From the NCBI RefSeq assembly GCF_030686945.1, contig NW_027122708.1, positions 5,674,248 to 5,738,247 on the forward strand: a stretch of DNA of 64,000 bases, read 5' to 3'. This document shows, piece after piece, positions 55,538 to 55,882 of this stretch. Position 1 is the first letter of the stretch, and each line of letters starts with the position of its first letter. The notes below the pieces were generated by a model. That model searched no databases and was not told the DNA's origin. It worked only from the letters and a program-made list of their open reading frames with translations. The position numbers and the translations under genes were made by a program. The DNA is from Centruroides vittatus (lineage: Eukaryota).

Positions 55538-55882
55538 TATATACAGGGTGGGCCAGCGAAAACGAAACAGCAGAGTGTTCGTGTTCGTCCAAGCAAAGCG
55601 CTCGGACAGGTCGATTTTACTCTCGAGGGGACATCTTTTGCAATAAAGTTTTTGAAATTCTGAATATTAACTAAACAAACATTTTTTTTCGAAATAAATG
55701 CTTGTTTACTTAATACAAAATAAATGAGTTTTTAAAATTTTTTGTCGTCTGTTGTATTCAGAATCGCAAAAACTTTATTGCAAAAGATGTCCCCTCGAGA
55801 GTAAAATCAACCTGTCCGAGCACTTTGCTTGGACGAACACGAACACTCTGCCGTTTCGTTTTCGCTGGCCCACCCTGTATAT
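55538..55882. mobile_element. Near-perfect 345-bp palindromic MITE (Tc1/mariner-type termini, TA flanks).
   Basis: The arms (about 135 bp each, ~99% complementary) are separated by an ~80-bp loop. The left arm begins at TACAGGGTGGGCCAGCGAAAACGAAAC and the right arm ends at its reverse complement ...CGTTTTCGCTGGCCCACCCTGTA. Confidence 0.7.

Follow-up and report, generated by a model that had tools for sequence, protein, structure and literature searches.

A near-perfect palindrome of 334 bp (55544..55877, CAGGGTG...CACCCTG), located in an intron of a predicted minus-strand WD40-repeat gene, is probably a recent, non-coding foldback MITE (miniature inverted-repeat transposable element), which most likely was mobilised by a Tc1/mariner-type transposase and which would now be carried passively in the intron while decaying at its CpG dinucleotides. 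The palindrome as such is real and statistically overwhelming: within the window (i.e., the whole 64,000-nt stretch of DNA that was analysed, to which all positions refer), the 21-nt terminus is present at exactly two places, one in each arm, with zero occurrences expected from 100 shuffles. The ends of the element read CAGGGTGGGCCAGCGAAAACG...CGTTTTCGCTGGCCCACCCTG.

The boundaries were set by an inverted-repeat search, which returned two arms of 135 nt each (55532-55666 and 55755-55889) with 96% complementarity and a spacing of 88 nt. Since the outermost 12 nt of each of these arms are TA-rich flank (aataaatatata and tatatatatatt) and self-complementary by composition, the element proper was taken as 55544-55877, with the following features:

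55542..55543, no strand: left flanking TA, putative half of a TA target-site duplication, within TATATA
55544..55666, plus strand: left arm (terminal inverted repeat, TIR), 123 nt, GC 46%, 8 CpG
55667..55754, no strand: central loop or spacer, 88 nt, 20.5% GC, AT-rich, residual self-complementarity weak
55755..55877, minus strand: right arm, 123 nt, pairing with the left arm (as its reverse complement) at 118/123 positions
55852, 55822, 55809, and 55766-55765: arm differences, paired with 55569, 55599, 55612, and 55655-55656, respectively
55878..55879, no strand: right flanking TA, putative half of a TA target-site duplication, first unit of (TA)5 at 55878-55887

Exact ungapped comparison of the two arms gave 118 matches in 123 positions (95.9%) and no indels, and complementarity collapsed past position 123; with arms of this length, inverted repeat makes up about 74% of the element. 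The ends are sharp, with TA directly followed by CAG on the left and CTG directly followed by TA on the right. The sequence-only reading, which had described a near-perfect palindrome with TA on both flanks and had made its case depend on arms not falling well below 95% complementarity, is thus borne out in structure, size, and flanks, with the element trimmed to 334 bp and the loop measured at 88 nt. Self-comparison of the left arm yielded no internal tandem or direct repeats beyond one 8-nt GTGTTCGT at a 6-nt offset. Regarding coding content, stops break all six frames in the loop, and the six-frame arm peptides, concatenated as one query, had no match in a 5.8-billion-protein database. No tRNA was detected with ARAGORN; hence, a SINE-like origin is not supported. 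A length of 334 bp, 123-nt arms, and stops in every frame give the element the size (under about 800 bp), inverted repeats, and non-coding character of a MITE.

The element is compositionally foreign to its intron. It has a GC content of 40% and 18 CpG (observed/expected ratio (o/e) 1.36), whereas the intron without the element has a GC content of 27% and a CpG o/e of 0.36; at the intron's rate, 4.8 CpG would be expected in the element (Poisson P 3e-6). This difference in composition points to insertion from elsewhere rather than to duplication of local sequence. The few differences between the arms fall at positions 26 (A/G), 56 (C/T), 69 (C/T), and 112-113 (AA/CG) of the arm. The reconstructed ancestral arm has 10 CpGs, which make up 20 of its 123 nt, and all five mismatch positions fall inside them (P 7e-5, or P 7e-4 if the mismatches are counted as four events); each of the three single changes is a transition from CpG to TpG/CpA. 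At the remaining, non-CpG positions the arms do not differ at all (0/103; 95% upper bound of the arm-to-arm divergence ~2.9%). The simplest reading of this pattern is that the palindrome was perfect at insertion and has since lost 4 of its 20 CpGs to deamination, presumably of methylated cytosines. The earlier description of the element as young agrees with these figures, i.e., with the absence of non-CpG differences and with a CpG o/e of 1.36 against 0.36 in the intron.

The window overall has 32% GC, a CpG o/e of 0.53, and a GpC o/e of 1.1. Along its length, the first 8 kb have a CpG o/e of 1.18 and the other 56 kb one of 0.23-0.54, while the GpC o/e stays at ~1.1 throughout. This CpG mosaic suggests a methylated gene body beside an unmethylated region, and the host appears to methylate the region in which the element resides.

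The host gene was delineated from three consecutive minus-strand exons with canonical splice signals and agreeing phases:

60495-60628, minus strand: exon of the host WD40-repeat gene, acceptor tatttag, donor GTAAGT, ending with 2 nt of a codon (CA)
57724-57817, minus strand: exon directly upstream of the element's intron, acceptor ttatag, donor GTAAGA, its first 1 nt completing CAT
52189-52296, minus strand: exon directly downstream of the element's intron, acceptor ttttag, donor GTAAGT, starting in phase 0

The spliced three-exon peptide matched PF00400 (WD40) with 27.9 bits (gathering cut-off 27), with a repeat running across the 57.7/52.3 junction, and the TEP1 second beta-propeller with an E-value of 1.9e-10; exon 52189-52296 alone matched the latter with an E-value of 5.9e-6 (Pfam). 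On this gene model, the element lies within a predicted 5.4-kb intron (52297-57723) and would be transcribed, if at all, as part of the host pre-mRNA. Four minus-strand WD40-like open reading frames (ORFs) were found in the window at 60.5, 52.2, 43.1, and 36.7 kb, and a fifth at 57.7 kb. The gene spans 36606-60628 on the minus strand, with candidate further exons at 43003-43179 and 36606-36914, and its best Pfam matches are TEP1, WDR3, and Prp19-type beta-propellers. It is arthropod-like. The WD40 exon at 36.6 kb had no homologue in a word-indexed protein database. Its introns are long and packed with transposons. Within the same intron, 1.3 kb from the element, a short plus-strand ORF (53914-54204) matched GIY-YIG (PF01541) with 20.1 bits (cut-off 22.6; E-value 8e-4) and is probably the remnant of a Penelope-like element.

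Both flanks of the element (...AAATATATA on the left and TATATATATATT on the right) lie within a (TA)n run. Direct repeats of 2, 4, or 6 bp (TA, TATA, or TATATA) fit them equally well and an 8-bp repeat fits at 7 of 8 positions; in such a TA repeat, one copy does not reveal how long the target-site duplication is. The empty site was rebuilt by taking out the element and one TA, which gives AAATATA-TA-TATATATT (i.e., ...AAATATATATATATATATT... / ...CCAATAAATATATATATATATATTATATTTGG...) and thus a ATATATAT-type tract. A TA at the centre of ATATATAT accounts for 1.0% of the 6136 TA dinucleotides in the window, and ATATATAT is the preferred target of Sleeping Beauty, a member of the Tc1 family (PMC8934666). 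The rebuilt site thereby has the TA within an AT-rich or ATATATAT context that the Tc1/Sleeping Beauty branch prefers. Two further types of duplication, Mutator-like of 9 bp and PIF-like of 3 bp (TWA), were ruled out, as no such fit exists in the flanks.

The termini also have precedents. TACAGGGTG termini occur on the Tc1-like MITE_83.0 of Rhodnius, and CAGGGTG termini on the mariners Rpmar26 and Rpmar65 (PMC4678618). An Aedes element that makes a 5-bp duplication has CAGGGTG ends as well (PMC3814204), and CAGGGTG is therefore not specific to Tc1/mariner. For the terminal 12-mer, no occurrence in a transposon context was found in the literature; the precedents found are for the 7-mer and are non-diagnostic. 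The assignment to a Tc1/mariner-like MITE made in the sequence-only reading is accordingly supported in an indirect way, by the TA flanks in an ATATATAT-type site, the CAGGGTG precedents, and a second element of the window (20980-21737); neither a family copy nor a cognate transposase was found to go with it in the window or the collections searched.

The best comparator in the window for the terminus of the foldback element is a 758-bp TA-flanked element at 20980-21737, whose insertion site is likewise a (TA)n run. The TIRs of this element (CAGGGTGTTTTGAAAGTCCTGTTACAAACTTATAGGGCAGATTCC) are ~47-60 nt long with ~89-90% identity, and it starts with TA followed by CAGGGTG, as does the 334-bp element. 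An internal minus-strand frame (...YFLWDHMSLIYKIPVELEEDLL...) gave a peptide with 72 homologues at an E-value of at most 1e-3 in a 1.84-billion-protein library, with C-terminal matches. One of the homologues (P0056, 354 aa) carries an N-terminal DUF4817 helix-turn-helix and the motif WPPRSPNLTPLDFFLW, which we take to be the third catalytic region of Tc1/mariner-type transposases. No Pfam match was obtained for the peptide itself, and no DDE domain was called in P0056 by Pfam at an E-value of up to 10 or by a PDB sequence search; the Tc1/mariner assignment of 20980-21737 derives from DUF4817 together with this reading of the motif. On these grounds it resembles a Tc1/mariner-type element with an internal deletion. 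It has in common with the foldback element the first 7 nt, the (TA)n site, and one AT-rich 21/23 match that lies about equally far from the end. It differs in that the sequence is unrelated after nt 7 apart from this match, a C-terminal transposase remnant is kept, and the arms are older (~89-90%), i.e., it belongs to a different family.

The window is densely populated by eukaryotic mobile elements, and others of them were recorded alongside. A 967-bp TA-flanked element at 33818-34784 has TIRs of 23-27 nt (CAGTGGGTGATTGGTTAATGAACA) and contains an ORF (34288-34515, plus strand) with a CENP-B_N helix-turn-helix (PF04218, E-value 2e-8), by which it is classified as a deleted pogo/Tigger-like element. 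The terminus of the foldback element had been likened beforehand to that of this element (at 33828, although it runs from 33818); the likeness is at chance level, since the alignment of the first 40 nt scored 8 compared to 6.1 +/- 1.3 in shuffles (maximum 12) and only a generic CAG is common to both, and kinship was therefore rejected. A deleted Tc1-like element from yet another family, 526 bp long, occupies 32745-33270; its TIRs of 42 nt (TACAGAGAAAACCCATAAG...) agree at 83%, and it encloses an 80-aa fragment (32798-33037, plus strand, ...PWGSQSPDMNPIKH...) with a weak DDE_3 match (E-value 0.018). A 1994-bp element at 37786-39779 has 42-nt TIRs (GGTTAATGTAACCCTTGGTGCCAAGATGGCGGCG...) of 95% and an exact 8-bp flanking direct repeat, AACAGAGA, which marks a target-site duplication of 8 bp, of the hAT-like or a similar kind. 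Further MITE-like foldbacks are located at 41795-42161 (87-nt arms, 92%), 40235-40706 (66 nt, 83%), and 5990-6554 (57 nt, 93%); their termini are unrelated to those of the 334-bp element. Long-armed foldback elements are common in this genome. An inverted repeat of 351 nt with 100% identity surrounds a 560-bp core at 23452-24713, and the core holds a 187-aa ORF (23807-24370, plus strand) with the motif GVYKIPY...YIGVTNRSLGIRLREH, presumably GIY-YIG-like, for which no Pfam match was found; the structure may be a head-to-head fragment of a Penelope-like element or an assembly feature. An intact 873-aa non-LTR reverse transcriptase ORF is present at 26345-28966 on the minus strand (RVT_1, E-value 1e-30). 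All named relatives of this reverse transcriptase are from insects: 11 of 12 belong to Lepidoptera, with identities of 40-odd %, and the twelfth is a protein of the ladybird Harmonia (36%). The best match overall (52% identity) is unnamed. The mobile elements of the window also include an endonuclease/reverse transcriptase fragment, and two short ORFs were read as GIY-YIG-like.

Against this background, an origin from another superfamily was considered, e.g., hAT, in which case TA would flank the element by chance, owing to insertion into a TA repeat. The ends of hAT elements often start with CAG or TAG, and hAT elements make 8-bp duplications. The 8-nt flanks of the foldback element (AATATATA and TATATATA) match at 7 of 8 positions, ends in CAGGGTG are found outside Tc1/mariner as well (PMC3814204), and the exact 8-bp repeat AACAGAGA at 37786-39779 indicates that 8-bp-duplicating elements apparently are present in the genome. 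However, the exact TA/TATA/TATATA repeat fits better than an octamer with one mismatch, and arms of 123 nt far exceed what is generally known of hAT ends. Where hAT elements have an 8-bp duplication and TIRs of ~10-25 bp, the foldback element has octamers that agree only at 7/8, for which a diverged duplication is conceivable, and TIRs of 123 nt. The ATATATAT target, together with the element at 20980 that begins with CAGGGTG after TA and carries a Tc1/mariner-like remnant, favours Tc1/mariner, and we regard an origin from another superfamily as unlikely.

A second alternative is that the palindrome is not mobile at all and that template switching or fold-back repair produced it, as an inverted duplication of local sequence that exists in one copy. 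The sequence-only reading had looked to BLASTN for family copies; run at low stringency against the 64,000-nt window, the search found the element itself and no further copy, i.e., the element is single-copy there. Exact scans with three arm segments (20-27 nt) found none in viral or prokaryote genome contigs, collections to which the host genome apparently does not belong. A scan of metagenome contigs, a collection that likewise apparently lies apart from the host genome, returned a single match, a 20-mer that a GC-rich bacterial coding region shares by chance. A longer relative with the same ends or a cognate transposase was found neither in the window nor in these collections. This single occurrence in the window and in the collections searched (apparently without the host genome) would suit a local duplication, as would the TA-repeat context, which leaves a target-site duplication unprovable. 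The arms, however, are foreign to the intron (GC 46% vs 27%, CpG o/e 1.36 vs 0.36, P 3e-6), the ends are precise at the TA/CAG and CTG/TA boundaries, and BLASTN against the window revealed no third, unpaired copy of an arm near the element. We therefore consider a local duplication quite unlikely. Self-BLAST of 53-58.5 kb further showed that the flanks do not belong to any larger repeat within the window.

The third alternative concerns function and is compatible with a MITE origin: whatever its source, the locus would be a hairpin-RNA gene, with a stem that is diced to endo-siRNAs or a miRNA-like product directed against the parent family or host genes. Folding of the plus strand (55538-55882), by which the sequence-only reading had proposed to examine the hairpin, gave -237.9 kcal/mol compared to -73.4 +/- 5.3 for shuffles (z = -30.8), and folding of the minus strand (55544-55877) gave -247.7 kcal/mol (z = -35.1). 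On the gene-sense (minus) strand, the stem comprises 111 uninterrupted pairs. The CpG transitions at 55569/55852, 55599/55822, and 55612/55809 are C-to-T on the minus strand, where they form G.U wobbles; on the plus strand they form A.C mismatches. Wobbles on one strand in three of three cases are not significant (P 0.125-0.25) and are compatible with either strand-biased deamination or preservation of the stem. Both the uninterrupted sense-strand stem with its fold energy and the confinement of all three transitions to G.U pairs on that strand count in favour of a hairpin-RNA gene. Precedents exist in Made1 MITEs, which gave rise to hsa-mir-548 (PMC1784062), and in long hairpins that feed the endo-siRNA pathways of flies (Okamura 2008, as cited in PMC3359762).

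A search of Rfam 15 over the window, however, gave no match at gathering scores. Permissive searches returned sub-threshold long-hairpin plant MIR families (MIR4208, MIR2606, MIR1435, and MIR812) on both strands, with a best score of 55.9 bits compared to the 140 of MIR4208, and with 51.3 and 49.5 bits for MIR2606, strand by strand; as these matches occur on both strands, they reflect shape rather than membership. A stem of more than 110 bp would suit siRNA rather than miRNA processing and, by comparison, is unlike animal miRNA precursors, and for most MITE copies a function has yet to be demonstrated. While a hairpin-RNA role is plausible, we hold it very unlikely that the locus is a hairpin-RNA gene. 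In a more specific version, the spliced-out palindrome would be diced into phased endo-siRNAs as a young hpRNA, silencing its own family or tuning the WD40/TEP1-like gene in cis, and the G.U-only decay would reflect selection for the stem; to this version we give a slimmer chance still.

That the palindrome is an assembly artefact, e.g., a fold-back chimeric read, is hardly credible and was rejected: long-read chimeras can yield inverted duplications, and a 351-nt inverted repeat of 100% also occurs at 23452-24713, but five arm differences that are all in CpG, without any indels, represent biological decay and not sequencing error, and the loop of 88 nt is unique and the TA/CAG ends are clean.

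In comparison with known systems, the foldback element resembles the Tc1/mariner-derived, Stowaway-like MITEs of insects, e.g., MITE_83.0 of Rhodnius prolixus (TACAGGGTGACC..., annotated as "Tc1-like ?") and the Gnome/Ozma-derived families of Aedes (PMC4678618, PMC3814204). Like these, it is small, non-coding, and TA-flanked, starts with TACAGGGTG, and resides in AT-rich intronic DNA; the insect MITEs differ in having typical ends of 20-60 nt instead of 123-nt arms, and in being unrelated in sequence past the first 7-9 nt. Tc7 of C. elegans is a non-autonomous Tc1-family element with long TIRs, and Sleeping Beauty and Minos are IR/DR elements. With Tc7, other long-TIR members of the Tc1 family, and Sleeping Beauty/Minos, the foldback element has in common the long inverted ends, the TA target, the ATATATAT preference (PMC8934666), and the CAG start. 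It differs from the IR/DR layout (discussed in PMC5224488) in that its arm is without an internal direct repeat of a terminal binding site.

Made1, the source of hsa-mir-548 (PMC1784062), is likewise a near-perfect palindromic MITE that forms a very stable hairpin if transcribed. It is, however, miRNA-sized, with 80 bp, 37-bp arms, and a 6-bp loop, while the stem of the foldback element is three times longer and its loop measures 88 nt. The MITE-derived MIR genes of plants (MIR812, MIR1435) were matched in Rfam at sub-threshold scores only, the foldback element being far below every gathering cut-off. The arms of Drosophila Foldback (FB) elements are kilobase-scale arrays of tandem sub-repeats, and FB elements make 9-bp duplications. 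Long inverted arms dominate in both FB and the element described here, and both are fold-back DNA; an FB-type element was nonetheless ruled out, as the arms are unique sequence and no 9-bp repeat is present in the flanks.

Returning to the preferred reading of a Tc1/mariner-mobilised foldback MITE, the following course of events is proposed. A transposase encoded elsewhere would have bound both of the identical ends and excised the 334-bp unit, i.e., the unit would have been mobilised in trans. The unit would then have integrated at a TA inside the (TA)n tract, in the intron of the minus-strand WD40-repeat gene, with duplication of the TA on insertion. This insertion would have been recent relative to the intron, as the element has retained its own higher GC content and undepleted CpG. 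After insertion, the arms would have changed at CpG dinucleotides only, as is to be expected where methyl-CpG deaminates in a gene body depleted of CpG. At present, the element is probably a passive passenger that would be carried in the host pre-mRNA and able to form a stem of ~111-123 bp.

The element is ordinary in kind, MITEs of this type being already known, and is best masked as a DNA-transposon relic instead of being called an RNA gene, with little significance beyond annotation. If dicing of the stem were true, it would be one more MITE turned into a source of small RNAs. Together, the CpG-rich state of the element and the restriction of its arm differences to CpG would make it a small internal clock that speaks for recent DNA-transposon activity and for CpG hypermutability in the gene body.
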